From: Acidimicrobiia bacterium
GTDB taxonomy: Bacteria > Actinomycetota > Acidimicrobiia > Spongiisociales > ZC4RG35
Direction of reading: 5' to 3'
DNA: 64,000 nt
NCBI GenBank assembly: GCA_965214265.1
Contig: CBDCBK010000010.1
Coordinates: forward strand, 678,230 to 742,229
Shown: positions 4,257 to 42,973 of the stretch, piece after piece
Position numbering within the stretch: the first letter of the stretch is position 1
Layout of the letters: each line of letters starts with the position of its first letter
Notes under the pieces: model-generated
The model's input: the letters and a program-made list of their open reading frames with translations, nothing else
What the model was told of the DNA's origin: nothing
Databases searched by the model: none
Position numbers and translations under genes: made by a program

Positions 4257-5322
4257 ATGAATGACATGGAGGATCGAGTGTCCCGGCAGCCGCGCCGCCC
4301 CACCAGCACCTCCGTTTTCGGGGCAGGTCGAAGAGAGAGCCACGACTCGTCGGCCTTCTACGCCCGTTTCCAGCCACCGATCATCGATGACGACGACCGG
4401 ATAGGCTCTAGTCCTGACCTCGACGGGCCGATCCTGGGGGACGCCCGGAGAATGGAGGAACTCCCCGACCGCTCCGTCGCTCTGGTGGTTACCTCACCTC
4501 CCTATTTCGTGGGGAAGGAATATGAGGACGCGGTGGTTCAGGCGGCTCGGTCGAATGACCTCGAAGCTGAGATACCCAAGAGCTACGGTGAGTACCTCCG
4601 GCTGCTCCATGATGTCTTCACTGAATGCGTCCGGGTGCTGGAGCCGGGAGGCCGCATCGCCGTCAATGTGGCCAATCTGGGCCGAAAGCCCTATCGCAGC
4701 CTGTCGGCTGACGTCATCGGGATCTTCGAGGCTCTCGGTCTGCTGCTCCGGGGCGAGATTATCTGGCGGAAGGCTTCCGCGGCTGGCGGGTCGTGTGCCT
4801 GGGGTTCTTTCCGGAGCCTGGCCAATCCGGTGCTCAGGGACGTAACCGAGCGGATCGTGATCGCCTCCAAGGGCCGGTTTGATCGGGCTCTTAGTGCGGC
4901 CCAGCGCCGATCCCAAGACCTTCCACACCGGTCCAGCGTGGCCAATGACGAGTTCGTGGAAGCCACCCTGGACGTGTGGGAGATTCCTGCCGAGAGCGCC
5001 CGTCGGGTGGGCCATCCGGTTCCTTTTCCTGTCGAGCTTCCCCTGAGGCTCATCGATCTTTACACCTACCTGGACGATCTGGTGCTCGATCCCTTCATGG
5101 GATGAAGGGACGACATTGGTGGCTGCTCATCGAGCCGGGCGGAGGGGAGTCGGCTACGACATCAACAGCGAATACGTGGACATCGCCTTGGAGAGGCTGG
5201 AGCTTGGGTACCGCCGTCCGTTTCTGGAGGAGGAGGCGGGGCGGGCGTTGTCAGCCAACGGTGTCGCCGATGTTTTGGTTTTGGACGGCAATTCCGGGGA
5301 GGATTCCAGGCGCGGGCGGTGA
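4257..5322 (+). pseudogene. beta-class N4-cytosine/N6-adenine DNA methyltransferase (motif IV 'SPPY' precedes motif I); single frameshift between 'DPFMG' and 'GTTLVAAHRAGRRGVGYDIN'
   Basis: 'VALVVTSPPYFVGKEYED' (motif IV) then 'LDPFMG*' at 5105. Motif I continues in the +1 frame as 'EGTTLVAAHRAGRRGVGYDINSEYV' (ORF 5116..5322). The frameshift is not in a homopolymer. Confidence 0.6.
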
Positions 5323-8340: not shown

Positions 8341-10149
8341 TCAGTGGGCGGCCATCTCGGGTCTGAAATCCAGCTCATACAAAAGCCCTGATCCGCCCGA
8401 CGCCGAGGCTTCCAGAGATCCGGCTTCGGGGAGGAGTTGCTCGCAGTAGAAGCGGGCAGTGGCGACCTTCTGACCCAGCCAGTCGTCCTTTCCGGCGGCG
8501 GCGCCGATTTGGCCGAGCGCGGCCTGGGCCGATCGGACCATGAGCCATCCGCCCATCACCGTTCCGAACATGGTTAGGTAGGGGTAGGCGCCCGCCAGGG
8601 CGTCCTGATAGGCGCCCTTGGCCAAGAGCGATCCCAGGGCGCGGCTTGATCGAGCGAGAATCTGGACCGACCGGGCCAACTCCTCACCGGCTCTTTGCAA
8701 CTCGTCCACCGAGGAGGCCTCCATGGCGGTGATCCCCACCTGCTCCAGCAGCTCTTTCACCGCTCCGCCCGATCGGATGGGGAGCTTTCTCATCACCAGG
8801 TCGATGGCCTGGATGCCGTTGGTGCCCTCATAGATGGGACTGATACGTGAGTCCCGGAAGAACTGGGCGGCGCCGGTCTCTTCCACAAATCCCATCCCAC
8901 CATGGATCTGGATGCCCAGCGACGCAATCTCCACCCCCAAGTCGCTGCACCAGGCCTTGGCGATGGGGGTCAGGAGCGACACAAGTTCCTCCGAGCGGGT
9001 ACGTTCCTCCTCGGATTCGGCATAGTACGAGCGGTCAACGGTGGCGACACAGTAGAACAACAAAGCTCTCATCGCCTCGATGCGGGCCTTCATCGTGGCC
9101 AGCATCCGGCGAACGTCGGGATGGTTCACGATCAGGGACTGCTCACCCGGCGGGGCGCCCACCGCTCTTCCCTGGCGGCGTTGCCAGGAGAACTCCAACG
9201 CCTTCTGATAGGCGCGCTCGGCGACCGCCAGCCCGCCTTGTCCCACCGCGATCCGGGCGGCGTTCATCATGGTGAACATCCGGGCCATTCCTCCGTGTTC
9301 GGGGCCCACCAGATAGCCGATTGCACCGCCGTTCTCGCCATATGAGAGCATGCAGGTGGGACTTCCGTGAATGCCCAGCTTGTGCTCGAGGGAGACGGTC
9401 CGGATGTCGTTCAGTTCGCCCGGTTTTCCATCCGGGCCCACCAGCCGCTTGGGCACCACGAACAGGGAGATCCCCTTGGTGCCGGGAGGTGCGTCGGGGG
9501 TCCGCGCCAGGACGGTGTGAATGATATTGTCCGACATCTCGTGATCGCCCCAGGTGATGAAGATCTTGGTTCCCGTGATCCGGTAGCTTCCGTCCGGCTG
9601 GGGTACGGCCTTGGTGGTGAGCGCTCCGACATCGGAGCCGGCGTGGGGCTCGGTGAGGTTCATGGTTCCCGACCACTCGCCACTGATCAGCTTCTCCAGA
9701 TAGAGGCCCTTTTGCTCGGGCGAGCCGTGCATGCTCAGCAGGTGGACGGTTCCCGCGGTGAGGGTGGAGCACAGCGAGAAGGCCAGACTTGAGGAGATCA
9801 TCAGCTCATCCACCGCGAAACCCACCACCTGGGGCATGCCTCCTCCGCCCCAGTCAGCGGGCAGGGAGATCCCCTGCCATCCCGCTTCGACTAGCAGCCG
9901 ATAGGCCTCGGCGAATCCGGTGGGGGTCTTTACCGTTCCCTCCGCGGTGAGGACCGATCCTTCGGCGTCGCCCACCGGGTTGAGAGGCGCTACCACCTCG
10001 GAGAAAAAGCGCCCGGCCTCCTCCAGAAGATCGCTTACCGTCCCCGGGTCGGCGTGCTGGAATCCGTTCAGCTTGGACAAGGACTCCAAATCCACGATGT
10101 GTTGCAGCACGAATCCGACATCCCGAAGCGGGGGCTGATAAACACTCAT
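8341..10149 (-). CDS. long-type acyl-CoA dehydrogenase (FadE-like, about 600 aa)
   Basis: ACAD N-terminal, middle and C-terminal domain signatures ('GFAVDELMISSSLAF', 'TEPHAGSDVGALTT', 'IYEGTNGIQAIDLVMRKL'). 602 aa. Confidence 0.8.
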   Translation of the reverse strand: MSVYQPPLRDVGFVLQHIVDLESLSKLNGFQHADPGTVSDLLEEAGRFFSEVVAPLNPVGDAEGSVLTAEGTVKTPTGFAEAYRLLVEAGWQGISLPADWGGGGMPQVVGFAVDELMISSSLAFSLCSTLTAGTVHLLSMHGSPEQKGLYLEKLISGEWSGTMNLTEPHAGSDVGALTTKAVPQPDGSYRITGTKIFITWGDHEMSDNIIHTVLARTPDAPPGTKGISLFVVPKRLVGPDGKPGELNDIRTVSLEHKLGIHGSPTCMLSYGENGGAIGYLVGPEHGGMARMFTMMNAARIAVGQGGLAVAERAYQKALEFSWQRRQGRAVGAPPGEQSLIVNHPDVRRMLATMKARIEAMRALLFYCVATVDRSYYAESEEERTRSEELVSLLTPIAKAWCSDLGVEIASLGIQIHGGMGFVEETGAAQFFRDSRISPIYEGTNGIQAIDLVMRKLPIRSGGAVKELLEQVGITAMEASSVDELQRAGEELARSVQILARSSRALGSLLAKGAYQDALAGAYPYLTMFGTVMGGWLMVRSAQAALGQIGAAAGKDDWLGQKVATARFYCEQLLPEAGSLEASASGGSGLLYELDFRPEMAAH

Positions 10150-10673
10150 ATGCGCTAATAGAGAATATCAAGATGCTGCCTTTAGGGATAAAAGGAACCC
10201 AGAGGATGCCTGGGGAGGGATGGTGGAGAGGGGTCGGCGGCGCGAGTTGTGAAAATCCGGGGCTATTCGCGAAAAAAGGGGCGATGAATCCCCGGAACAC
10301 ACTGGCAGAGTCACTAAACACCTCCGGTCCGTTCCGACGTCGTCCGGACCGCAGAATCCCAGAGGTTATATGCCGCGAAACACCCCTCACCGGGGCTCGG
10401 ATTTTCACGACTTCACAGATGACGGCGGTGGCGGGGAGAGGGCCTGAGGGGTGAAAAGTGGCCAGCCGATTTTCGTGATTTAGGGTTCCCTTTTCGCGAG
10501 TTTGGGGTACCGTTTCGGTGCTCGTTGCATAGGGTTCCCGCTCCCCATTAATAGGGGACAGGGCATTCTTCGAGTGGCGGGACGTACGAGCCGGCCCAAA
10601 CTCCTGTCCGATGAGATCCGGGCGGTCTATTCTTGACAGAGCTACCCCTCTTTCGCGAACTGCCTGCCCATCG

Positions 10674-25666: not shown

Positions 25667-25877
25667 GAGCAAACGCCCGGACTCTCGGCGGCGGTGGTTC
25701 TTTTGACAAGGACAGCCGCAGTCGAGTGGTTTCGAGGCCCAGAGGCTCAGGATGTTGCGGCCTCTAGCAGACGCCATGCCGTTGCTTTGGCTAGGATGAT
25801 GTCAGTTGAGGGACAAGTCCCTCGCAAATCGTGATTTCCGCTACCTGTTGGCGGGGAAGAGAAAAGAGGAACAAACA

Positions 25878-27638
25878 ATGCAACGCTTGACGAAGTTCAA
25901 GATAACTCTCCTTCTGGTCGTTCTCGCGCTGGCAGCCGTTGGCTGTGGCGACGACGATGCCGAACCAGACGAACCCACGACCACTGTGGCCGCACCGGCG
26001 CCGACTACCACAGAAGCGCCGGCGCCGTCCGACACGGACGAGGCGCCCGAACCCGCGCCCGAGACCACAACTACCACTGCGGCGCCGGCCCCCCCACCGG
26101 AACCAGTCACGGTTCGGGCTGCGGTCACAGGGGATGAAGGAACCCTTACCCCCTACACGTACATCAGCGGCTTCCCCGGGTGGAATATCATGATGCTCCA
26201 GTACGACTCTCTGATGCAGCTTGACTCGGCCGGAATTCCCCAGCCCTGGCTGGCCTCGAGCGTCACCGTCAGCGACGACCTCACCGAGTGGTCGGTAACT
26301 CTGGTCGAGGGCGTAACTTTCCATGACGGGGAGCCTTTGACCTCCGATGACGTGTCCTTCAGTGTTGACTACTACGTGAACAACCCTGAGGCGAGCCGTT
26401 TCGCACGCGACTTCAGCGGCGTGGCGGACGTAGTGGTACACGATGACTACAATGTCACCTTCGTTCTCAACGGTCCCAGCGCCGGATTCGACGTGGGAGC
26501 GCTGGCCGATGCACCCATTATCCCGCGCCACATCTGGGAGTCGGTGGAACTTCCGTCGGAGCACCAGTTCGAGGGCGGTACCAACATCGGGTCGGGTCCG
26601 TACAAGTTGGTCCAATACGTCGAAGGCCAGAGTTACCGATTCGAGGCCAACCCCGACTTCTTCCGGGGCGCCCCGGCGGTTGACGAACTGGTAGTCATCG
26701 TCTTTGCCGACGACGCAGGCACTCAAGCCGCCATCCGTACCGGGGAAGTCGACGTGATCTTCGAACGGATACCCCCCGAGCAGATCGATCTGCTGGACTC
26801 CCAGGACCCGCTGGACATCGCCTTGGGACCCGAGTTCACCACCCAGATGATTAACTACGACGCTTCGAAGCGCCCGTTCGACGACGTTGCAGTCCGTCAG
26901 GCCATCAACTTGGCTATGGACCGCCAGGACTTCGTCGACACCGTGTACCTGGGGGCAGCCACAGTGGGGAGTCCCGGCTGGATCCATCCCGGGCATTCGT
27001 CTTATAACCCCGCCATCGTCCCCGTGTACGACGTGGCCGCGGCCAACGCGCTATTGGACGGCGCCGGCTATGCCGACACCGACGGCGATGGCGTCCGAGA
27101 GTTCGACGGGCAGCCGATGTCTTTCGAGATCATCACCAACTCTTCCGACTCGCTACGTCTGCGGATCGCCGAGTTGACTACGGAGATGCTGGCTGTGATC
27201 GGCATCGAAACCGAGATCGTACCCGTCGACACCGGAGTCTGGGAGCAGGCCGTGTGGCCGAGCTTCGATGTCAACAATGGTCGCAACTACGAGATCGCCA
27301 TGTGGGGATGGTCGGCGCCCGTTCAGGCCGACCCGCTACGGCTTCCCTGGTTGGTCCACAGCTCAACGGATTCAGGATTCCTCAACCTGACCGGCTACGG
27401 CAACGCCGAGATGGATACCCTTTCCGAGGCCCTGTCTGTCGAGCCTGATCCGGCGGAGCGCAACGCTATCTTGGGTCGAATGCAGGAGATAATCGCCGAG
27501 GACCTGCCGTTCGTGCTATTGCTGTATCCGGATGGCGCCTATGTGTACGACTCGAGCGTCTACTCGGATTGGGAGTTCATCGCCGGCCAGGGCATCGTCA
27601 GCAAGCTGTCGCTGCTCCCGCCTTCCGCCCGCCCGTAG
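25878..27638 (+). CDS. ABC transporter substrate-binding lipoprotein, family 5 (peptide/nickel type)
   Basis: Lipobox 'LALAAVGCGDDD', a Thr/Pro/Glu-rich linker, then the family-5 SBP fold. Start ATG at 25878. Confidence 0.8.
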   Translation: MQRLTKFKITLLLVVLALAAVGCGDDDAEPDEPTTTVAAPAPTTTEAPAPSDTDEAPEPAPETTTTTAAPAPPPEPVTVRAAVTGDEGTLTPYTYISGFPGWNIMMLQYDSLMQLDSAGIPQPWLASSVTVSDDLTEWSVTLVEGVTFHDGEPLTSDDVSFSVDYYVNNPEASRFARDFSGVADVVVHDDYNVTFVLNGPSAGFDVGALADAPIIPRHIWESVELPSEHQFEGGTNIGSGPYKLVQYVEGQSYRFEANPDFFRGAPAVDELVVIVFADDAGTQAAIRTGEVDVIFERIPPEQIDLLDSQDPLDIALGPEFTTQMINYDASKRPFDDVAVRQAINLAMDRQDFVDTVYLGAATVGSPGWIHPGHSSYNPAIVPVYDVAAANALLDGAGYADTDGDGVREFDGQPMSFEIITNSSDSLRLRIAELTTEMLAVIGIETEIVPVDTGVWEQAVWPSFDVNNGRNYEIAMWGWSAPVQADPLRLPWLVHSSTDSGFLNLTGYGNAEMDTLSEALSVEPDPAERNAILGRMQEIIAEDLPFVLLLYPDGAYVYDSSVYSDWEFIAGQGIVSKLSLLPPSARP

Positions 27639-30848: not shown

Positions 30849-31298
30849 TCATGGGCGCCAGTCGGACTCGATCGGTGGGCAGGTCTGAATCAGGTGGGGA
30901 TAGCCGCGGAGGCCGTCTTCCAAGGAGTGATCAGCCCCCGCTCTGATTACTTGATCATCGCAGGCGGGGATGACCCCGGCGCCCAGCAGGTCGATGTTCT
31001 CCATCCAGCGGTCGAAGGAGAGCCGCAGGTCGAAGACCAGGTGGTCGACGCCCACTTCCGGGAACTTGGCGGTTGCGGTCACCACCTCGTCGGGGTTTCT
31101 GGCGATCAGTGAACCCTCGATGTCCTCGGCGGTCTCGAAGCGACCCGACAGAGGCTTCACCCACCACTTGCCGCGCGTGTTCGCCCAGGCCAGGAGGCCC
31201 TCGATGGATGTACCGGCGATGGCCTCCTCGGTGGTCTCGGCGATGCTGGTAGGAGGTATGCAGGCCACGGTCGGCATCGGGCGGCCGTTCTCCCGCAA
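30849..31298 (-). pseudogene. possible C-terminal fragment of an LLM-class flavin-dependent oxidoreductase
   Basis: 'NPDEVVTATAKFPEVGVDHLVFDL ... DLLGAGVIPA' resembles LLM C-termini. No N-terminal TIM-barrel portion lies upstream. Confidence 0.3.
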
Positions 31299-31475
31299 GA
31301 GTCACCCCGGGTTTAGCGGAGAGTGTGATGGTCTCCCGCAGCGGGTTAACCTCACCAGAGCCAAGCGACCTCAGAGCACCGACAACTCCTAGAAGATCAG
31401 TGGCTCGTCGATGCTCCTAGGGGGGTCTCCTCATGGGCAAGCCGTCCGCGGTCGCCAACCGTAGTATCGACCGGT

Positions 31476-32357
31476 ATGGGCCGTTTCACACAGCCGCAGC
31501 GCCGCAGTTCAGGACGTCAGGTTGTACGGTTCGCAGAGGAGCTTCGCCTCGACTGGTCAAGGGCTCGGGTGGGTGGGCTGTCGGCTGAGATCGCTTTCTT
31601 CGCGCTCCTCGGGCTGTTCCCGGCTGTGGTGGTATTCGCTGCCGCGCTTGGTTCGCTTGACGTGGTGATGGGCGAAGACGCGGCTGCCGACACCGAGCAA
31701 TGGCTACTCAATCAGGTGCATGAGATCTTCGGCTCCGACAACACGCTGCGCTCTACCATCGCGGAGCTCTTCGAACGGTCGAATGCGGGACTGATCACGG
31801 TTGGCATCGTTTTGACGATGTACGCCTCGTCGCGGGGCTTCGTCGCCGTGGTACGCGCTCTGGACGTGGCATATGGCCACGATCAGCGCAGAAGCTGGCT
31901 GTCGACCCGGGTTCTGGGTTTGGGCCTGACGGCTTCCACGATTCTGGTTGCCGCGCTGGTTGCCGCGATGGTGGTGGTCGGTCCCTTGCTGGGCGGCGGG
32001 GAGGAGGTGGCCGAGCGTCTGGGGGCCGGCTCCGCGTTTACCACGGCTTGGGGGTGGTTGCGCTGGCCTGTGGTGTTTGCAGTTGTGGTCTTGTGGGCCA
32101 CCTCCGTCTACCACATAGCGTCCCGCAGGCGGGCGCCATGGCGACGGGAGTTGCCAGGAGCGGTGGTGGGAACCGTGTGGTGGCTGGTCGTGTCGGCAGG
32201 TTTCCGCGCCTACCTCGAGTTGGCCTCCAGCGGTGTGAACGCGGTGTTCGGGTTGCTGGGTGGGGCTCTGAGCCTGCTGCTGTGGTTGTATCTTCTGGCG
32301 ATGGGCCTGCTCGCCGGGGCTGGGTTGAACATGGTGCTGGCTCGCCGCCGGCGGTGA
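31476..32357 (+). CDS. YihY/BrkB-family membrane protein
   Basis: 293 aa with six TM segments and family motifs 'YASSRGFVAVVRALDVAYG' and 'LLWLYL'. Confidence 0.75.
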   Translation: MGRFTQPQRRSSGRQVVRFAEELRLDWSRARVGGLSAEIAFFALLGLFPAVVVFAAALGSLDVVMGEDAAADTEQWLLNQVHEIFGSDNTLRSTIAELFERSNAGLITVGIVLTMYASSRGFVAVVRALDVAYGHDQRRSWLSTRVLGLGLTASTILVAALVAAMVVVGPLLGGGEEVAERLGAGSAFTTAWGWLRWPVVFAVVVLWATSVYHIASRRRAPWRRELPGAVVGTVWWLVVSAGFRAYLELASSGVNAVFGLLGGALSLLLWLYLLAMGLLAGAGLNMVLARRRR

Positions 32358-32867
32358 TCCGGCAGGGCACCGGCCCTATTGGATGCTCTCCGCATCGGGT
32401 CGAACTGGCTGCAGATGTCTGGTCGGGCACACCAAGCCCACCGTCGGGTCTCAGCCTTCCGGACCTGGCTGGGAACGATTCCGAGCATCGCTGGTTCGGC
32501 GCACCTTGGCGCGTCGTCGAGGACCTACCGGTAGGTGCTGGTGGCTAACCGGGATTCCGTCCGGGGAGGTCGATAGCACCAGGTCCGGTTCTTTCGTAGC
32601 CCCAGTCCCCCAAGATCTTGAGCGGAAGTCCCGGCCACTAGTTTGAGGGGGTGTTGCCGATCACTGAACCTTCCCATCTCAATTGACCGAACTGGACCGA
32701 AGAATTGCATGCCTTCTCCGACCGCTGGGAATCTCTCCTCAGTTATTATGCTCCGGGCCAGCGAACGGCGCGTTGGACGTCCTGTAATAGCAAGCAGACA
32801 TCGTTCGCAGTCAATAAGAGAACTCTCGACTCCCCGGTAACCAGACTCAAGAGATGACGAAAGACCC

Positions 32868-33737
32868 TCAGTATCCTCGGCCTGATTGTTGTGTATACCA
32901 CTCCCATCGCGACTTCATGCCTTCTGGATCCGACGTGACCTTTTCAGGAGCGAAGTCGAACTCCCATCCTTCGGTTGCTATGGTATCTACTATCTTTCCC
33001 GCATTAAAGCAGAGTCCAGTGAATCTGTTTGGAGGCTGGCTTGCCAGCCAGACAAAGGCCTGACCCAGTTCGGTAGGATCCGTCCAGGTTGATTTCACGT
33101 CTTCGGGCACCAGCTCTGCCTCTGCAACAGTTACCCCCGATGGCTTGATTCGCTTTCCAGGCCCCACAGCGTTGATAGCTATGTTGTGAGGCACTGCCTC
33201 TATGGACAGGGATTTGGCAAACCCTTCTTGGCCGTGTTTTCCGACACCATATGCAACCTCATTGGCAAAACCGTGAAAGCTGGAGAGGCTGGCCACAGAC
33301 ATGATATGGCCACCACCTTGCGCCTTCATTACCTCCCACACCGCTTTTGTGCCATTAAACAGACCACCCAAATTAATGAAGACCTCATGCCACCAAGCCG
33401 CATGAGATGTTTTCTCAAAACTGATCACCGGCATTATCACAGCAGCATGAACCAACACATCTAACCTGCCCCATTCATCAACCACTTTGTGGACGACGTT
33501 GTCGAACATTTCAGGGTTGGTTACATCCAAAGGCAGATTGAGCAGTTGGGTTCCACTCATCTTCATCCCCTTGAAAGAAGCTTCCATCTCCGCTTCATCC
33601 ACATCGGTCGCGCACACCTTCACACCGGCTCGTCCGAAGGCCTTGGCAATTCCGCTGCCGAGACCTCTGCCAGCGCCTGTCACCAGTGCAACGTTCCCCT
33701 CCAGTCCGGGTATGACTGGGTTGCCTTTGAGGATCAT
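32868..33737 (-). CDS. SDR-family oxidoreductase with long C-terminal extension; markedly lower GC than surrounding DNA
   Basis: 'VALVTGAGRGLGSGIAKAF' Rossmann motif and catalytic 'YGVGKHG'. Local GC is visibly lower (about 50%) than the flanks. Start ATG 33737 ('MILKGNPV'). Confidence 0.7.
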   Translation of the reverse strand: MILKGNPVIPGLEGNVALVTGAGRGLGSGIAKAFGRAGVKVCATDVDEAEMEASFKGMKMSGTQLLNLPLDVTNPEMFDNVVHKVVDEWGRLDVLVHAAVIMPVISFEKTSHAAWWHEVFINLGGLFNGTKAVWEVMKAQGGGHIMSVASLSSFHGFANEVAYGVGKHGQEGFAKSLSIEAVPHNIAINAVGPGKRIKPSGVTVAEAELVPEDVKSTWTDPTELGQAFVWLASQPPNRFTGLCFNAGKIVDTIATEGWEFDFAPEKVTSDPEGMKSRWEWYTQQSGRGY

Positions 33738-34198
33738 GACGAACCTAGCCGGTTGGAGAACCCAGTGCAGTCGCCACCGGTTGCACCGCATCCATGACGA
33801 ACTCGACATGCTCTTTGTCTCGGCAAAGGAACCACGAACCTATCTTCTCACGCCTCGAACTGCTGTGCGCGGCCGCTGCATTTGGGGAGCAACCCCGAAG
33901 GACTACCCGCGTCGTCACTCATCTAACTCTACCAGACGGCTGCAACAGCGCCACCTGCCGCTGGCAACAGCAACCCAACGACCGCAAGCCACGGAAATCG
34001 CCCGCTACTAGTGGTTTGACCAATCGTCTACCCAATGGCTTTGGACACGGCAAGTCCGAAAAATTCCCGGGTCGGTTCACCACACCTCAAAGCAGGTCGA
34101 TGGGACTGATATCTGCTGAGTACCCGTCATACGGATCGTTTTCGTTATCTCAGGTCTTGGGTTGGTGGGGGTTGCCGACCTTCGTTCGTAGTCGCCGG

Positions 34199-37140
34199 TT
34201 ACTGGCATTGTGCCGGGGTACTGTCCTCTTGGGACACCGCGAGGACGTATGTGCCCTTGAAGCCGCCTTGGGAGTCGATCTTGACGTAGTGCGAACCGGT
34301 GCCTGCTGCGGTGAACTCCAACCTCGCGTCATTTCCCGGGCCGCTGTCTAAGTCGTAGGAATCTTCTATCCGGCCTCCGCCCTTGGAATGGAGACGGCCG
34401 GCGGTCTCGTAGGCGCCGTGCAGCGCCGTGTCATCAGGGTCGACGTAGATGCCGAGCAGCTCCGGATCCGGCAACGTTGCAGTGCCGGAGCTGAGCCCGC
34501 GTACTTCGAGCACATACGTCTCCCCGGCGATGAGTTCGACGCGTATCCAGTCGATGTCCCACGACGGGTCGATTCTCGCTTGCGTCGGGTCGCCGAAGCA
34601 ACTGCCGACTTCCACCGACGCGGAGGTGCTGAAATCGGGAACCGGGTCGTTTGCCTGCGGTGACGTGCTTGCCATCAAGAACATCGACTTCAACGAATGG
34701 GTGCCGGGTGACTGAACTCGTACGTAGTAGATGCCTGAGGGGACCACGGCATTCACGTATTCTTCGGTGTTCGACTCATTTGTGCTCGAGGCGAGAACCG
34801 CCAGCGTCGAGTCGGACTGTGGCTGCTCGAGGAACACATCTGCATCACGGGAGATGTCCAACAAGACGGCCGCGACGAATCGTTCTCGTGTCAACGTAAA
34901 CTTGAAATAGTTCGATCCAGAACTCAGCCAGTCATGCCACACGAGGCTCAGAGCGCCCTGCGTGGTCATATCTCCAAGGTCAAGCGCGCCGACGGGTCCC
35001 GCAGCATCGTCATCGGCCACCGTTGCCGACACTTGCGCCGACAGCCCGGCATAGTTCGCGTCAGCCGATGTCGCGGTCGCTGTCACCGACACCGTCTCGA
35101 AAGCATCGTCGTTGTCGTCGACACCGGCAACCGTGACGGTCTGGGCCGTGTCCCATGTCGCCGGGGTGAAGACCAGCAGCGCCCCGCTGCTCACCTTCAA
35201 CGCCCCGTTGTCACCCGAGGACACCACAACGACGACATCCGCCGACGGGGCAGTGGCGAGTCTCACCGAGAACTCCCCGGTGCCTGCCTCGCCCACGCGC
35301 ATCTGCGTGGGGTCCACTACCAACCCGGAATGATCGTCGTCTTCGACATTGACCTCCAACTCCACGCGTGTCTCGTCGTAGGCAGCATCGGTGGACGAAG
35401 CCACCGCGGTGACGGTCACGTTGTCATCGTCAGCGTCGTTGTCGTCGACACCGGCAACCGTGACGGTCTGGGCCGTGGCCCATGTCGCCGGGGTGAAGAC
35501 CAGCAGCGCCCCGCTGCTCACCTTCAACGCCCCGTTGTCACCCGAGGACACCACAACGAGGACATCCGCCGACGGGGCGATGGCGAGTCTCAGCGAGAAC
35601 TCCCCGGTGCCTGCCTCGCCCACGCGCATCTGCGTGGGGTCCACTACCAACCCGGAATGATCGTCGTCTTCGACATTGACCTCCAACTCCACGCGTGTCT
35701 CGTCGTAGGCAGCATCGGTGGACGAAGCCACCGCGGTGACGGTCACGTTGTCATCGTCAGCGTCGTTGTCGTCGACACCGGCAACCGTGACGGTCTGGGC
35801 CGTGGCCCATGTCGCCGGGGTGAAGACCAGCAGCGCCCCGTCGCTCACCTTCAACGCCCCGTTGTCACCCGAGGACACCACAACGAGGACATCCGCCGAC
35901 GGGGCAGTGGCGAGTCTCAGCGAGAACTCCCCGGTGCCTGCCTCGCCCACGCGCATCTGCGTGGGGTCCACTACCAACCCGGAATGATCGTCGTCTTCGA
36001 CATTGACCTCCAACTCCACGCGTGTCTCGTCGTAGGCAGCATCGGTGGACGAAGCCACCGCGGTGACGGTCACGTTGTCATCGTCAGCGTCGTTGTCGTC
36101 GACACCGGCAACCGTGACGGTCTGGGCCGTGGCCCATGTCGCCGGGGTGAAGACCAGCAGCGCCCCGCTGCTCACCTTCAACGCCCCGTTGTCACCCGAG
36201 GACACCACAACGAGGACATCCGCCGACGGGGCGATGGAGAGTCTCAGCGTGAGCTCTGCCGTGCCTGCCTCGCCCACGTTCAGGCCGGTAGGCACGGCAA
36301 GGAGTCCCCGCTGCTGCCTCCACCGCTGCTGCCTCCACCGCTGCTGCCTCCACCGCTGCTGCCTCCACCGCTGCTGCCTCCACCGCTGCCGCCTCCACCA
36401 CCACTGAAGCCCCCGCCGTCTCCGTCGTCTTCTTGCTCCCCGCTGGCGCTGGGAAGTTCTGGCGAGTGTGCCAAGGCGCGTGCGAGGAACGTGGCCATCT
36501 CTGCCCTGGTCACAGGCTGGTCCGGGCAGAACATGGTGTCTTCGCATCCTTTGGTGATGCCCGAAGCGGCGAGCTTGGCGACACTTGCCGCGTACCAAGC
36601 GTCGGAAGGCACGTCGCTGAAACCAGGGTCGGGTCCTTCATCCAGCCCGAACGCTCGGGACAGGAAGGCAGCCATCTCGGCGCGGGTCGTAGTCCGATCG
36701 GGGCAGAAGACACTGCCGTCCCCGCATCCCTTGGTGACGCCAAGTGCCGCCAGGCGCTCAATGAAAGCTACGTGAGGATGCGCCGCGTCCACGTCCCCAA
36801 AGCGCCTTGACGCAGCCGGCCAGGGGTCCGCTCCGTCCAGGACGCGAACAGTCCACACCGCCACCGTCGCGCGATCTATGTCATCCCCGGGGCAGAACCC
36901 CTCATCGCACTCAGTGCCCACAAACACCCCGGCGGCGGCAAGAGTGCTGACCGGCTCCGCGTAGTAGGCGTCGGAGGGAACATCCGAATACGGCGCACCC
37001 TGTTGCGCCACGGCCGCCGACGTTGCTGCCCCCAGTACCGCAGCCACCATGGCCACAAAAGCCAACCCCCAAACCACCCCAACACGAACGCCACTCAACC
37101 ACAACCGCACTAAAACGAACCCCCACCGAGGCCGACACAA
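34199..37140 (-). CDS. large surface protein: signal peptide, 3 SLH domains, (GGGSS)n linker, 4 near-identical ~109-aa Calx-beta/cadherin-like repeats, 2 PPC (pre-peptidase C-terminal) domains. Currently split by a -1 frameshift in a C4 run near 36306
   Basis: SLH motifs ('FSDVPSDAWYAASVAKLAASGITKGC...VTRAEMATFLARAL' x3) in ORF 36280..37140. The repeats 'GEAGTGEFSLRLATAPSADVLVVVSSGDNGALKVS.GALLVFTPATWATAQTVTVAGVDDNDADDDNVTVTAVASSTDAAYDETRVELEVNVEDDD' occur x4, followed by the PPC-like region, in ORF 34199..36598. The two ORFs overlap and join if one C is added at 36306-36309. A likely ATG start is at 37050. Confidence 0.7.
34977..36285 (-). repeat. four tandem 327-bp coding repeats, nearly identical at DNA level
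   Basis: Identical spurious antisense ORFs start at 35391, 35718 and 36045 (period 327). The protein repeats are about 95-100% identical. Confidence 0.85.
36311..36400 (-). repeat. 15-nt microsatellite (ctgctgcctccaccg)x5 encoding (GGGSS)n linker
   Basis: Direct reading. Confidence 0.9.
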
Positions 37141-37280
37141 TTACTACAGATACAACTCATTTACAGAGCAGAAGTTAGCACTATATACCGGCACTCGCAT
37201 TGTTACCTCACAATCGCCTCATAAATGTACCACAGCGGGGCAGCGTCCCATTGATGTGGTGGGAATGATCCTTACCGCAG

Positions 37281-39010
37281 TGAACGCGTTTCGTCTTCGA
37301 CAATGGGACTGCGCGCTGGGAAGGAGTCCCGTTGAGAGGGAAACGACCGAGAAGAGAGTGCTCGGAGGAGTTCAAATGTGACGCGGTGGAGATCGTGGGC
37401 AGTTCTGGCAAGCCAATACACCAGGTCGCTAACGAGTTGGGGATCTATGACTCGACGTTGGGGAACTGGGTACGTCAGGATGAGATCAACCGGGGAGATC
37501 GGGAAGGGCTGAGTACCGATGAGAGGGAACGGCTCCGCGAACTCGAGCTGGGCTTCCCCCCGTATCGTGGAGGCTTGCTCTTTGAGGAGGAGCTTATGTC
37601 TGAGATACGTAGAAGGTATGACCCGGAGTTCAAGTCTGGGGCGGTACGGATTGTTCTGGAGACTGGGAAACCGATTGCCCGGGTGGCCCGGGATTTGGGT
37701 CTTCAATGCGGGTACGTTGGGGAACTGGGTGAAGCAGCAGCGTGTTTCCCAGGAGGGCAACGGGCCGTTGGGCGAGGACGGCTTGGCTGAGCTTGTTCGG
37801 CTGCGGAAAGAGGTGGCGGAGTTGCGGACGGGGGCGTGATGTGCTCAAACGATCTGTGGTCCTGTGGGTCAAGGAGGCGACACGATGAGCGTGGTATCCC
37901 ATATCGCCGCCCAGAGGACCAACCACGGTGTTCCCCACGCGGTTTCCTGTCGGCTTCTGGGGGTGAGCGAGTCCTGGTTCTACAAGTGGCGCAGCCGCCG
38001 CCCGACCGCCACCGAACAACGCCGGGCGGAGTTGGATGTGAGGGTAAGGATCGTGTTTGAGACATCTGCAAGGACCTACGGTTCTCCCCGGGTTTGTGCT
38101 CAGCTGCGCTCCGATGGTGAACGGGTCTTTAGAAAAGACCGTGGCCCGGTCTATGCGCACCCAAGGGCTCGTTGGCACGGCAGAAACGGCGCCGGCGAGG
38201 GCTGACCCGCCCCGACAAAGCCGCTCCTGTGGCGCCTGATCTGATCCGCCGCGATTTCACCGCCCAAAGACCTAACGAGAAATGGTGCGGCGATTTCAAA
38301 CAGATCAACACCCAGGAGGGTCCCGTCTACCTGGGAACGGTCGAGGACCTGTACTCCCGGCGGATGCTGGGGTTCGCTCTCAGTTACACCTATCCCACCG
38401 CCGAGCTGGCCAAAGCCGCGGTGAACATGGCCATCGCCACCCGAGGCGGAACCGTCGAGGGAGTGATTTTCCACACCGACCGAGGCTCTCAAATACAACG
38501 CCGAAGCGTTCACCAAAGCCTGCGCGCGGCTGGGGATCGTCCAGTCCATGGGAAGAGTAGGCTCCGCCTTGGACAACGCCGCTGCCGAGTCGTTTTTCTC
38601 CACCCTCCAACAGGAACGGATCAACAACCGACGGTACGCCACCAGAACCCAAGCCAGACAAGACATCGCTAACTGGATCCACACCTGGTACAACCAACAC
38701 CGACTACATTCCACCCTCGACATGACCAGCCCCATCAACTACGAAAAAACCCACGAAACAACCTAACCAACTCTCCACGATTTGGGGGGAACCTCAAGCG
38801 GGGAGAACGCTCGGCTGCGGATGGAGCGTGAACTCTTGAAACGAGCTGTGGCCTTCTGGGTGAGGGAGTAGAACGAGTGATGCTGTATCGCTTCGTCGAT
38901 GCCCAGAGAGCCGAAGGGTTCCCCGTCAGGATGGTGTGTTCGGTCGTGGGGGTTTCCCCCTCGGCCTACTACGGGTATGGGAAGCGGGTCCGGCTCAGCT
39001 GGCCGAGGCC
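37281..39010 (+). mobile_element. IS3-family element 'B' (IRL near 37281 starting TGAACG; orfA N-terminus at 37332..37548; orfA C-terminus and orfB N-terminus at about 38797..39010), interrupted by nested IS 'A' and 3'-truncated
   Basis: orfA-B N-terminus 'RGKRPRRECSEEFKCDAVEIV...DERERLRELE' resumes after element A as 'ENARLRMERELLKRAVAFWVRE*' followed by orfB 'LYRFVDAQRAEGFPVRMVCSVVGVSPSAYY'. No right inverted repeat was found before integrase homology begins. Confidence 0.6.
37549..38796 (+). mobile_element. IS3-family element 'A' (~1.25 kb) nested inside element B; 3-bp AGC target-site duplication; orfA (HTH) and orfB (DDE) with several frameshifts
   Basis: Inverted repeats TGGGCTTCCCCCCGTATCGTGGAGGCTTG (left) and TGAGGTTCCCCCCAAATCGTGGAGAGTTG (right, reverse complement), flanked by AGC on both sides. 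orfA reads 'MSEIRRRYDPEFKSGAVRIVLETGKPIARVARDLG...ELVRLRKEVAELR' then (+1 in a G5 run at 37830) 'RDVLKRSVVLWVKEA'. orfB reads 'VSHIAAQRTNHGVPHAVSCRLLGVSESWFYKW' ... 'HTDRGSQ' ... 'GRVGSALDNAAAESFFSTLQQE', spread over three frames. Confidence 0.7.
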
Positions 39011-39019
39011 AACGTCAGA

Positions 39020-39934
39020 GCCGTCGCACAAGGCCGAGACCCCCGAAGCCACCGGGACATCACCTTCAAGACAATCGCCATGGAATACATCGACTGGTGC
39101 GCTTTGGGGGGCACATGGAGTCCCGGAGGTCGGCGCCGCCAGTCCTGGACAAACAGTCTCACCACCTATGCCTTCGCAGTCATAGGCGCAATGCACCCCC
39201 GGGATATAACCAGCCTCCATATCTTTGAGATCCTAAAACTCATCTGGATCACCAAACACAAGGCCGCCGTGGACCTCGGAGGCCGGATCAGCAAGATAAT
39301 GAAATACGCCATAGCCCTGGGTCACTGCGACACCGATCCCGCCCAGAGAGCCCTGGACGGTATGCCTCCCGTTCACATAGAAACCAAACACCGCAGATAC
39401 ATCCATTACAAGCATCTCGGAGAAGCCCTCAGGATCGTGGCAGCGTCCGACGCCGACCCCATCGCTGTCAACGCTCTTATCTTCGCGGCCCTCACCGGTG
39501 TCCGCAGCGGCGAACTCCGGAAAGCCACCCGGGACCAGTTCCACATCGAGGAGCGCAGGTGGCACATACCTGCGGCGAATGTCAAGAACCGCCGCTAGCA
39601 TTTCGTGCCACTATGCGACATCGCCATAGCGGTGCTGGAGGACACCTTCGAACGCACAGGCCCCGACAGCGAGTGGGTGTTCCCCGCGCCTCGGGGAGGG
39701 ATGATGCACTCCGACAACCTCAAGAAACCCCTCCGGGATTGTGGACTCGACACAGACGTCCACGGGTTCAGATCATCTTTCCGCACCTGGGCGGCCGAAA
39801 ACAACATCGACGAGAAAGCCGCGGAAGCCGTCCTCGCCCACAAAGAACCCAGCCCTCGGTCGAAACTGACACCTGGAATGACACAGCAACCAAATGGATC
39901 CCCGAATTATGCCTCTGACCAGGCCAAACACTGA
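39020..39934 (+). pseudogene. P4-type tyrosine recombinase/integrase remnant: 5' end replaced by IS3 sequence, in-frame TAG at 39596-39598, degenerate catalytic-Tyr region
   Basis: 'ALTGVRSGELRKATRDQ' (catalytic Arg box), 'KNRR*HFVPL' (K...H.VPL box split by TAG), 'HGFRSSFRTW' (H..R box). Ends 11 nt from the 3' end of tRNA-Ser. Confidence 0.65.
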
Positions 39935-39943
39935 TGGGGTCTC

Positions 39944-40034
<91 letters not shown>

Positions 40035-40074
40035 TTTGGGCCAGCGTCGGACGAAAAGACTCTCCCGACGCTGG

Positions 40075-40166
40075 CGGAGGGAGTGGGATTTGAACCCACG
40101 AGGGAGCTACAAACCCCCAACGGCATTTCCAGTGCCGCGCACTAGACCAGACTATGCGATCCCTCC
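40075..40166 (-). tRNA. tRNA-Ser (anticodon GGA)
   Basis: Reverse complement: acceptor GGAGGGA, anticodon stem CGGCA/TGCCG with loop CTGGAAA, long variable arm, T-arm GTGGG-TTCAAAT-CCCAC. Confidence 0.85.
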
Positions 40167-40251
40167 ATTACCCAATAACTGGTATAGGTTAAGAAAGCGC
40201 TCAGTTCGCCTAAGACATTAGCAAACCGCTCAACGGAGATAAACAAAGAAT

Positions 40252-40728
40252 ATGCTCGACTCAACGGATCACGACCGATTCATGGAACTGGCTCTGCGCG
40301 AGGCGGCCAACGCCCCGGCTCATGGGGATGTGCCGGTGGGGGCGGTGATCGTCGACTCCGCCGGGAGACTGGTGGCCGCCAACCACAACCGTCGGGAGGA
40401 AAGGGGGGATCCCACTGCACATGCTGAGGTGCTGGTTTTGGCCGAGGCCGCCCACCGGGCGGGGTCCTGGCGTTTGCTGGGGCACACTCTGTATGTGACT
40501 CTGGAGCCATGCTCGATGTGTGCCGGGGCCGCGGTCTCCGGCCGAATCGCCCGGATCGTGTACGGCGCCGCCGACCCCAAAGCCGGAGCGGTGTTGAGCC
40601 TCTACAACATTCCCGGCGATCGGCGTCTCAACCACCAGTGCGAGATAGTGGCAGGGGTGGGTGCCGACCAGAGCGCCGAACTGCTCAGGTCGTTTTTCAG
40701 CAGCAAAAGGGGTCGCGACAGCGAGTGA
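40252..40728 (+). CDS. tadA: tRNA adenosine(34) deaminase TadA
   Basis: Zn-binding 'HAEVLVL' and 'PCSMCAGA' motifs of the CDA fold. 158 aa. Confidence 0.85.
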   Translation: MLDSTDHDRFMELALREAANAPAHGDVPVGAVIVDSAGRLVAANHNRREERGDPTAHAEVLVLAEAAHRAGSWRLLGHTLYVTLEPCSMCAGAAVSGRIARIVYGAADPKAGAVLSLYNIPGDRRLNHQCEIVAGVGADQSAELLRSFFSSKRGRDSE

Positions 40729-40877
40729 TCCCGTCCTTTCGTCATCTCGGATCGTGCTAAGGTCGGGATGCGTGCTAAGTGGGGCGCTAGGGGTTCCCTG
40801 AACCCGAAATCCTCTACATGCGGGGCCGAATTCCCCGCCTGAGGATGCCGAGCCCCGGGCAGGCGGCAAGAGCGCAG

Positions 40878-40982
40878 TGATGACGGCCGGGTCCCGTGAG
40901 TCGGGGTGGTCGTGAACCGGGTCAGATCCGGAAGGAAGCAGCCCTAAGCGGGTGTCCCGGTGCCACGGGGGCGCCTGGTCTG
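40878..40982 (+). ncRNA. ffs: signal recognition particle RNA (small bacterial 4.5S-type)
   Basis: The conserved domain IV motif 'GGTCAGATCCGGAAGGAAGCAGCC' (40919-40943) sits inside an extended hairpin (cccgtg...cacggg). Overlapping ORFs 40896..41402 (+) and 40922..41227 (-) are rejected. Ends are approximate. Confidence 0.7.
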
Positions 40983-41069
40983 AGCAAGCGGCTTGTCAGC
41001 CGACCGGAGGTGTCGAGTCCGAAGGCGGGGTGCACGCTTGGGCGGAAGGCGGCATGGCCCGCGGCGCCG

Positions 41070-41708
41070 TTAGGACTTGAGCAGGGCCGCTCCGTAAACG
41101 CTTCCCCATATCCCCATTCGCCACAGCTTGCCGACTTCGAACGGACCGTCTCGAAACATCTCTTCAGGATGAGGGAGCTTGTCCATCGAACGATGGAAAT
41201 ACCAGTATTCCCGCACCGCACCGGCAAGCATTCCCACCACTGGGGTCACCATCGCGGTTCCCGTGCGGTGAATCGGTGCGGCCAGCCGGTTGAGGGGTCG
41301 TCCCGCGTCCACTACCACCATCACGCCTCCCGGGCGGAGCACCCTGGCTGCCTCGACCAGGGTTTCTTCCACCGACTGAAGATTGCGAAACACGAAGGCT
41401 GACCATATTCCGTCAAAAGTGTTATCAGCAAAAGGGAGACGCTCGCCTTTCCCAACTACCCGTTGGGGAGCGGGATTGATGGAGAGCATCGGCCAGACCG
41501 GATCGAGCGCCACCACCTGCTGGCGTTCGTTGAAGAGCGGCATGGCCACGCCGGTCCCCGCTCCCAGATCCAGGATGAGACCGTCGGGAAGACAGGAGAT
41601 ACCCTGTCTTCTCCAAGCCTGGTCCTGACCCAGGGAGAGGACCCGGTTGAGTCGGTCATACCGCTGGTATATCCGCGAGAAAATGTGTTCGGGTGAAGGT
41701 GCGGTCAC
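41070..41708 (-). CDS. class I SAM-dependent methyltransferase (UbiE/MenG demethylmenaquinone methyltransferase family)
   Basis: 'ILDLGAGTGV' motif I and 'LRPGGVMVVVD'. 212 aa. Confidence 0.7.
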   Translation of the reverse strand: MTAPSPEHIFSRIYQRYDRLNRVLSLGQDQAWRRQGISCLPDGLILDLGAGTGVAMPLFNERQQVVALDPVWPMLSINPAPQRVVGKGERLPFADNTFDGIWSAFVFRNLQSVEETLVEAARVLRPGGVMVVVDAGRPLNRLAAPIHRTGTAMVTPVVGMLAGAVREYWYFHRSMDKLPHPEEMFRDGPFEVGKLWRMGIWGSVYGAALLKS

Positions 41709-41713
41709 TGTCT

Positions 41714-42973
41714 CTACGGTGGGTCGATACGATCAAAGCTCAGATAAGGCCGGAGCGCTTCGGGCATCACCACCGAACCGTCGCTTTGCTGATGGTTCTC
41801 CAACAGGGCAATGATCACTCTGCCTACCGCTACCGCCGTTCCGTTTACCGTGTGTACCAATCGGTTGCCTCTCGGCGCCTTCATGCGGATCTTGAGTCGT
41901 CGGGCCTGGTAGTCAGTGGTGTTGGAGCAGGAAGTTATCTCCCGGTAGGTGTTCCAAGAGGGAAACCAAGCCTCGATGTCGTACTTCTTGGCGGCGGAGG
42001 CGCCTAGGTCGCCGGCGGCCACGTTGACCACCCGGTAGGGAATTTCCAACTCCCTGGTCAGCTTCTCCTCCAGCTCCAGAATCCGCTCGTGCTCCTCGGA
42101 CGAGTCTTCGGGACGGGTGAAGGAGAACATCTCCACCTTGTCGAACTGGTGAACCCTGAAAATCCCTCTGGTGTCCTTGCCGTGGGTTCCGGCTTCGCGA
42201 CGGAAGCAACTGGAAAAGCCAGCATAGCGGATGGGAAGCTGGTCGGGGTCCAGGATCTCGTCGGCGTGGTAGGCGGCCAGGCTGATCTCGGATGTGGCGG
42301 CGAGGAACAGTTCGTCGGCGGGAATTTCGTAGACCTGCTGGCGGTCCCCGGGGAAGAATCCGGTGCCGAACAGCGCCATCTCCCGGACCAGCACCGGGGT
42401 GACCATAGGGACCAGACCGGCCTTCACGAGGTGATCCATGGACCAGTTGATCAGACCGAATTCCAGCAAGGCCGCCTTGCCCTTCAGGTATCCAAAGCGC
42501 GACCCCGCGATCTTGGCCGCCCGCTTGGTGTCAATGACATCCAGCCGTGCTCCCAGGGTTTCGTGATCGGCGGGCCTGAAGCCGAAGAGGGGGATCTCCC
42601 CCACCCGCCTGACCTCCTGTGCGTCATCCTCGGTGAGCCCGTCGGCGGCGGTGGGATCGACCAGGTTGGGCAGTGTGTTCCACTCCTCATAGAATCGGTC
42701 GGAAGAGGCCTCGGCCTGGGAGTTCAACTCCTTGATCCGGCCGGCCAGCGAAGCGGCCCGCTCGATGGCTTGCCGCTTTTCATCTCCTTCCAACTCGGCT
42801 ATCTCCCTCCCCAGGGATCGTTGGGCGGCTCGCATTTGCTCGGCCTCGTGGCGCAGTCTCCGGATCCGGGCCTCGGTCTCCACCAGGCCTTCGATCGGGA
42901 TATCCAGGCCCCGACGAGCCAGGGATTGGCGGATCGTCTCCGGGGAGGAGCGGAGTATGGCGAGGTCGAGCAT
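41714..42973 (-). CDS. serS: seryl-tRNA synthetase
   Basis: N-terminal coiled-coil 'MLDLAILRSSPETIRQSLARRG', class II motifs ('FRREAG', 'GTGFFPGDRQQ') and 419 aa. Confidence 0.9.
   Translation of the reverse strand: MLDLAILRSSPETIRQSLARRGLDIPIEGLVETEARIRRLRHEAEQMRAAQRSLGREIAELEGDEKRQAIERAASLAGRIKELNSQAEASSDRFYEEWNTLPNLVDPTAADGLTEDDAQEVRRVGEIPLFGFRPADHETLGARLDVIDTKRAAKIAGSRFGYLKGKAALLEFGLINWSMDHLVKAGLVPMVTPVLVREMALFGTGFFPGDRQQVYEIPADELFLAATSEISLAAYHADEILDPDQLPIRYAGFSSCFRREAGTHGKDTRGIFRVHQFDKVEMFSFTRPEDSSEEHERILELEEKLTRELEIPYRVVNVAAGDLGASAAKKYDIEAWFPSWNTYREITSCSNTTDYQARRLKIRMKAPRGNRLVHTVNGTAVAVGRVIIALLENHQQSDGSVVMPEALRPYLSFDRIDPP

Follow-up and report, generated by a model that had tools for sequence, protein, structure and literature searches.

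Triads of S-layer homology (SLH) motifs anchor proteins non-covalently to a secondary cell-wall polymer, and pre-peptidase C-terminal (PPC)/collagen-binding domains bind external ligands. The described SLH wall-anchored proteins, for example SbsB of Geobacillus and the S-layer-associated enzymes of Bacillus and Clostridia, begin with a signal peptide, continue with three TRAE-bearing SLH motifs and then carry a passenger. Tandem beta-sandwich domains of about 105-110 amino acids occur in other large surface proteins (Calx-beta, PF03160; fn3_6, PF17766; LapA, PF20579; the S-layer domains of SbsC), and PPC/collagen-binding domains are found in bacterial collagenases (PF04151; ColG s3b, 1nqd; ColH s3, 3jqw; B. 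anthracis, 5sv5). Here we analyse a gene that combines an SLH anchor, a stalk of tandem repeats and a PPC head, and lies on the minus strand at 34199-37140 of a 64,000-nucleotide stretch of DNA (hereafter the window) from an Acidimicrobiia bacterium (assembly GCA_965214265.1, contig CBDCBK010000010.1, positions 678,230-742,229 of the forward strand). We conclude that the locus is a single gene, encoding a secreted cell-envelope protein, that carries a 22-bp deletion in its linker and is probably a very recent pseudogene.

One gene read in two frames

The locus is covered by two overlapping open reading frames (ORFs) on the minus strand. ORF-A (36280-37140, 286 amino acids) encodes a signal peptide, three SLH motifs, a Gly/Ser linker and an out-of-frame tail of nine codons (GDSLPCLPA*); its likely true start is the GTG at 37110, the start used by the ortholog P0001. 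ORF-B (34199-36598, 799 amino acids) is genuinely coding only from "...GLLAVPTGLNVGEAG" on, and the part before this is the SLH region read out of frame. When one C is added to the CCCC run at 36306-36309 (plus strand), a single frame results, which encodes 980 amino acids from the TTG at 37140 or 970 from the GTG at 37110 and ends at a stop codon at 34199-34201. The original prediction, made from this sequence alone, had proposed this repair and a single gene, interrupted by a frameshift where the linker ends, for a secreted, modular, SLH-anchored surface protein; both proposals are borne out, although the size it gave (about 1050 amino acids) was too large and the label "giant" overstated.

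Support for a single gene comes from related loci, of which we compared ten (L001-L010) with the window. P0001 on L001 (844 amino acids, 95% identical) has the signal peptide, SLH region, linker, three repeats and two PPC domains in one frame, and intact one-frame copies with five and four repeats are found at L008 (OZ242187.1, Candidatus Aldehydirespiratoraceae) and L009 (OZ244034.1, Acidimicrobiia), both from chromosome-level metagenome-assembled genomes (MAGs) in a species-representative collection. Since these three loci read from SLH region through linker and repeats to PPC domains in one frame, the window holds the split form of a single gene, and the comparison with SLH proteins of related taxa that had been proposed thus yields intact versions. 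The NCBI name given to the relatives is 'S-layer homology domain-containing protein [Acidimicrobiia bacterium]'.

The lesion itself is best seen in comparison with L010, the contig carrying P0125, which was found in a search with the SLH region and is 99% identical to the SLH part of the window. L010 is syntenic with the window (insertion sequence (IS) pieces, surface-protein gene, SDR gene, BrkB gene, ABC transporter) and 99.39% identical to it across 11.6 kb. When the two sequences are aligned pairwise, L010 shows 22 bp at the linker end (GTGGAGGCAGCAGGGAAGCTGC in coding orientation) that are missing from the window, with ...GAGGCAGCAGCG/GTGGAGGCAGCAGGGAAGCTGC/GGGACTCC... in L010 against ...GAGGCAGCAGCG/GGGACTCC... 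in the window. These 22 bp encode part of ...GGGSREAAG..., and with them the P0125/L010 junction runs in one frame (...GGGSSGGGSREAAGLLAVPTGLNVGEAGTAEL..., also read as ...GGGSREAAGLLAVPTG...) and is the same linker-repeat junction as in L001 and L009. A GCGG microhomology is present at both breakpoints (CAGCGG / CTGCGG), and the deletion junction created the G4 run that appears as CCCC on the plus strand. Because the loss of 22 bp is equivalent to 1 modulo 3, one added base "repairs" the frame; what had been taken, from a single sequence, for a homopolymer frameshift turned out to be the scar of a microhomology deletion relative to L010, a lesson for similar readings elsewhere.

L010, labelled 2.85x coverage, carries several 1-nt indels, one of them in repeat 1 and two splitting its SBP_bac_5 gene. 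The SBP_bac_5 gene of the window (25806-27638) is intact and its pst/phoU/phoBR genes are whole, so that the window is the better sequence of the two, which would favour a real deletion. Frameshifts had also been suspected in other window genes, the pst operon among them; these proved to be long upstream ORF extensions and not breaks.

In its intact form, the protein would be exported by its Sec signal peptide and held non-covalently on the secondary cell-wall polymer by its three SLH motifs. The low-complexity Gly/Ser spacer and the four Ig-like repeats would project the head outwards, and the head itself, formed by the two PPC-type domains and probably the ligand-binding part, may bind host matrix. 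Lying between GCGG microhomologies where the linker reaches its 3' end, the deletion shifts the frame, ending ORF-A after nine nonsense residues and leaving the stalk and head in ORF-B as an untranslatable passenger, there being no start codon that would supply ORF-B with a signal peptide. Because ORF-A ends early and ORF-B lacks such a start, we regard the gene as most likely a recent pseudogene, from which at most an SLH-only stub would be made.

Anchor, stalk and head of the encoded protein

The predicted Sec signal peptide (VRLWLSGVRVGVVWGLAFVAMVAAVLGAATSAAVA/QQ, 37003-37110, minus strand as for all modules below) is suggested by a hydrophobic stretch and an AVA/QQ site in the sequence. 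It precedes the SLH region (36433-37002), in which the Pfam hidden Markov model (HMM) PF00395 finds three stretches with 93.9 bits, well over its cutoff of 20.8 bits, in agreement with the three SLH domains originally predicted. A local HMM built from orthologs scores the region at 361 bits and finds it to be the sole SLH gene in the window. TRAE occurs in motif 2 (TTTRAEMAAFL) and motif 3 (VTRAEMATFL), and motif 1 reads IDRATVAVW. The linker that follows (36305-36432) is acidic and then Gly/Ser-rich, EDDGDGGGFSGGGGGS(GGGSS)5, and contains a 15-bp tandem array located by Tandem Repeats Finder (36308-36399; 6.1 copies, 98% matches, five perfect units), which encodes the (GGGSS)5 and thereby confirms the (GGGSS)n linker of the original prediction. 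An NCBIfam scan of the protein gave only a partial SLH-containing match, far under its cutoff, no significant PDB match came from sequence searches with the whole protein or with the profiles of the repeat and the C-terminal module, and a scan for promoters and terminators returned nothing exceeding shuffled expectation. No recorded protein was identical to ORF-A as read from the GTG at 37110.

The same MAGs hold many SLH paralogs (seen in P0046 and P0061-P0119) whose anchors are 60-76% identical and whose passengers differ, comprising RCC1 repeats, CAP/SCP, fn3/purple-acid-phosphatase-N, LRR, trypsin-like protease and L,D-transpeptidase modules. These paralogs form an expanded family built of SLH region, linker and variable module.

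The stalk corresponds to a 327-bp tandem array (35107-36278, 97% matches) and consists of four units of 109 amino acids, at 35978-36304 (repeat 1), 35651-35977 (repeat 2), 35324-35650 (repeat 3) and 34997-35323 (repeat 4). Repeats 1-3 share 97-107 of 109 residues with one another (89-98%), the closest pair being repeats 2 and 3 (107/109), and repeat 4, diverged in its last third, is identical to the others at 72-82 positions (66-75%). The four 109-residue units of the original prediction thus exist, but only the first three are near-identical. Their proposed Calx-beta/cadherin-like nature found no backing, as no HMM assigns them to these families. The window unit has no Pfam match even at E<=10, and an alignment (A1) of 80 non-redundant units, drawn from 365 full-length units cut from distant homologs, gives only scattered weak matches (fn3_6 19, LapA 12, Big_2 3, Calx-beta 3, Cadherin-like 1, the last with E 0.006). 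AlphaFold2 run on A1 predicts a nine-strand sandwich (pLDDT 96.9), and this model matches PapD/MSP, SbsC and Calx-beta structures equally well, as a generic Ig-like sandwich would. Judging from the model, the stalk repeat is an unclassified module of the Ig-like (E-set-like) fold class, which the terms Calx-beta and cadherin fit only loosely.

Related repeats of 105-110 amino acids occur in up to about 15 tandem copies in proteins of many phyla (P0007-P0093, A1), with the consensus ..EG...tftV.L...P.a.VtV...S.....tvsP..LtFt..NW.t.QtVtVt...D.D.... With no Pfam model reaching threshold, the stalk repeat looks like an uncurated domain family, and a large one outside every Pfam model. An ORF of 613 codons on the plus strand (34934-36775), antisense to the repeats and linker and with a low-complexity translation that mirrors the repeat periodicity, is most likely a shadow ORF of this high-GC gene.

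The head comprises PPC domain 1 (34646-34996) and PPC domain 2 (34202-34645). With a cutoff of 25.9 bits for PF04151, domain 1 scores 22.0 bits within the whole protein and 27.7 bits when scanned alone. Domain 2 remains below the cutoff because of an insertion of about 25 amino acids, with 16.3 bits as it stands and 23.6 bits once the insertion is removed. Its assignment draws on profile matches: an exhaustive search with an HMM of the aligned C-terminal module (A2) retrieved, among representative proteins, 6586 with E<=1e-3 and 687 with E<=1e-30. Giant proteins with 10-33 copies are numerous among them, and in the top relative Pfam recognises 22 PPC domains. Repeat units of P0256, which themselves reach 30.9 bits for PPC, are matched by the latter half of the profile, and domain 2 shares with PPC repeat proteins the motif D.DW..V.L.AG..Y...GTL.DP.L...FTA..G.YY....G.Y.L. 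The presence of two PPC-type domains, as originally predicted, is therefore supported, for the first by its score when scanned alone and by its fold, and less firmly for the second, which falls short of the cutoff and is tied to the family by these profile matches. A word-index search with the C-terminal 265 amino acids returned four proteins; the rarity of the module that this seemed to indicate was overturned by the 6586 HMM matches, a reminder that divergent repeat domains missing from an indexed search are not necessarily rare.

Broken copies, divergence and competing explanations

Apart from the three intact copies, the gene is broken at eight of the 11 loci, six times in the linker at differing positions (window, L002, L003, L004, L005 and L006) and twice within a repeat, through a 1-nt indel (L007 and L010). 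The shift needed to join the halves is -1 in the window, L003 and L004 and +1 in L002, L005 and L006, and the linker measures 180-572 nt, with a different length in every pair of loci. The same lesion, with unequal linker lengths, is shared by L005 and L006, which stem from two separate samples, so that real linker frameshifts do occur. From these comparisons, the linker DNA appears to be a hypervariable slippage hotspot, with most related copies also broken. Many SLH-family ORFs in the long-read metagenome assemblies of ENA (P0125-P0244; P0121, P0122, P0124) finish with tails read out of frame, such as the Arg/Gln/Trp-rich read-through of Gly-codon linkers, and indel noise is common in the low-coverage contigs there; every protein returned by the search with the SLH region only was of 345 amino acids or less, which provides examples and not an unbiased rate of truncated SLH genes. 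Many split SLH genes in such assemblies represent a mixture of real lesions and consensus noise.

Several of the related loci have conspicuous neighbours. In L002, a DarT-Macro (DarTG-like) pair adjoins the gene (8800-10499), and in L005 (9656-13722) a protein of 3376 amino acids with cadherin, fn3 and PPC domains is encoded 1.9 kb downstream of it, the counterpart of which is interrupted by a DDE transposase in L006.

The two halves of the gene differ in their divergence (Nei-Gojobori estimates). Between locus groups, synonymous divergence (dS) amounts to 0.4-0.83 in the SLH region, with a ratio of nonsynonymous to synonymous divergence (dN/dS) of 0.15-0.28, and to 0.05-0.10 in the C-terminal module, with a dN/dS of 0.4-0.8 from small counts. 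Given this roughly tenfold lower dS, the passenger is far younger than its anchors and the gene is a mosaic, whose junction would lie at or near the linker; the passenger is probably a recently exchanged module on much older SLH anchors. In group B, all copies of which are broken, dN/dS is about 0.67 in both halves, a value compatible with decay. L001-L009 are homologous to the window only across the gene (34191 to about 37060-37550), with flanks that bear no relation to it and are rich in IS and integrase genes, only L010 being syntenic; this is consistent with mobility. It is tempting to speculate that the Gly-codon-rich linker DNA of SLH-anchored proteins in these Acidimicrobiia is a recombination and slippage hotspot that both swaps passengers between anchors and repeatedly breaks the frame, an idea we hold to be rather unlikely as it stands. 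If true, strains within host-associated populations would come to differ, through the linker, in which individual surface proteins they have.

Some observations weigh against a pseudogene of a secreted wall protein with a two-domain head. The signal peptide, the binding to the secondary cell-wall polymer and the binding of a ligand are predictions, as are adhesion and the loss of function. With its small counts, the dN/dS of the passenger does not tell relaxed selection from diversifying selection, nor does it distinguish a young pseudogene from a gene that still works. Shallow sub-alignments of PPC domains 1 and 2 compared with hhalign gave no significant match, and the structural model of the C-terminal module is of medium confidence (pLDDT 66.5), low for domain 2. 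Finally, the related metagenome assemblies hold indel noise, seen in L010, in L004 (two adjacent 2-nt losses), in P0121 (two compensating frameshifts 110 nt apart) and in the many short SLH ORFs with out-of-frame tails, so that the high fraction of broken copies must in part be artefactual.

The last point leads to an error of assembly or consensus, in which the gene of the organism is intact and reads from the tandem array or from mixed strains were collapsed into one consensus. The 22-bp gap lies inside a perfect tandem array, where strain heterogeneity could produce it, and the unequal linker lengths, the poor state of L010 and the abundance of frameshifted SLH ORFs in assemblies of the same kind all point in this direction, as do the noise-like lesions of L004 (8x) and L007 (10x), which represent two strains of a single species from the same sample. 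Yet a clean 22-bp loss bounded by GCGG is a product of replication slippage and atypical as a long-read error, the window is otherwise the more intact of two near-identical sequences, and the L005/L006 lesion is reproduced in two independent samples. We therefore consider an artefact unlikely, though deserving of serious attention. A reversible contingency locus, in which a hypermutable linker toggles the surface protein on and off in the population, would account for at least five independent linker frameshifts among 11 loci with both halves otherwise open, and would suit a surface protein in a lineage with host-associated close relatives. It is nevertheless improbable: the repeat units are multiples of a triplet (15, 18 and 21 nt), no long homopolymer is present and the G4 is the scar of a deletion, the loss of 22 bp is not easily undone, and group B shows similar dN/dS in both halves, as in decay.

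That the two ORFs are separate functional genes, one for an SLH-only wall protein and the other for an independent repeat/PPC protein, would agree with the separate calling of the halves in seven related loci and with the stronger purifying selection on the SLH half (dN/dS about 0.2). We find this very hard to accept, as ORF-B offers no start with a signal peptide, the residues upstream in its frame are the SLH region read out of frame, the called starts are internal Met codons within the repeats, and intact fusions exist at L001, L008 and L009. If the ribosome were programmed to shift by -1 at the G-run, or transcription slipped there, a full-length protein might also be obtained, given that the ORFs overlap and that a -1 shift at AGC GGG GAC formally joins them. 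This mechanism was rejected as next to impossible: no X XXY YYZ heptamer is found at the site, three orthologs read in one frame, the breaks in the relatives differ in site and in the direction of the shift required (+1 for L002, L005 and L006, -1 for L003 and L004) with no conserved slippery site found, and the near-identical L010 simply holds 22 more bases. A very recent pseudogene, disabled by the deletion, thus remains the reading we favour.

Neighbourhood and comparison with known systems

The gene lies in a stretch marked by mobile elements. Upstream of it we found degenerate pieces of an IS3-family transposase on the plus strand (37332-38766; HTH_Tnp_1 twice, HTH_21, rve and rve_3, spread over several frames and at least four ORF pieces), and a tyrosine integrase remnant (Phage_int_M and Phage_integrase, 38936-39934, plus strand) that lacks its N-terminus and falls into two pieces in the same frame, 38936-39598 and 39605-39934, with an in-frame stop between them. 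The remnant adjoins a tRNA-Ser(gct) gene (39944-40034, minus strand), followed by tRNA-Ser(gga) (40072-40166). Downstream lies the SDR (adh_short) gene (32868-33809, minus strand), syntenic in L010 and situated in the lowest-GC kilobase of the window (GC 0.548 versus about 0.62). The island proposed between this low-GC gene and the IS/integrase remnants is recovered as a mobile-element-rich, decaying stretch, although no att repeat marks its borders, as a search for direct repeats over 31000-42000 found none. An island-like, decaying neighbourhood is thus supported, and we count the nearby decay (the in-frame stop of the integrase, the fragmented IS3) as probably speaking for a pseudogene. Further away in the window, an N6_N4 DNA methylase ORF (4257-5105, plus strand) stops at profile position 191 of 221, and its 3' end may be truncated or carry a frameshift.

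The gene is of an ordinary kind and adds to the SLH-anchored surface proteins already known. The lineages of its relatives, Aldehydirespiratoraceae and Poriferisodalis-type Acidimicrobiia, are described as sponge-associated, and sponge-symbiotic Acidimicrobiia have been reported to be enriched in Calx-beta, fn3 and cadherin domains (PMC11706023). Our literature search for SLH in sponge Acidimicrobiia and for Poriferisodalis returned no relevant report, one comparative-genomics paper providing context only. The locus adds one case to the picture of sponge-associated Acidimicrobiia carrying many modular, repeat-rich surface proteins, indicating that such proteins can be wall-anchored through SLH motifs and that breaks in these genes, and probably the exchange of modules as well, occur in the low-complexity linker. 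The fold of the head, that of the collagen-binding domains of clostridial collagenases, suggests a role in adhesion to host matrix, which by analogy and given the sponge-associated relatives seems reasonable.

Compared with the known SLH proteins, the gene belongs to a member of the Acidimicrobiia (Actinomycetota), its passenger is an unclassified Ig-like stalk with two PPC domains instead of a lattice-forming or catalytic part, and it is broken. The stalk shares with Calx-beta and other Ig-like adhesin repeats its tandem arrangement and unit length as well as acidic, DxD-rich loops, but differs from Calx-beta in having no Pfam match, and PapD/MSP-type domains score equally high in structure. 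In contrast to the collagenases, whose PPC fold it shares, the protein has no protease or collagenase domain, and its second PPC domain is set apart from theirs by the insertion that keeps it under the cutoff; binding of collagen or calcium is putative, and the PPC pair is carried at the tip of an SLH-anchored stalk.

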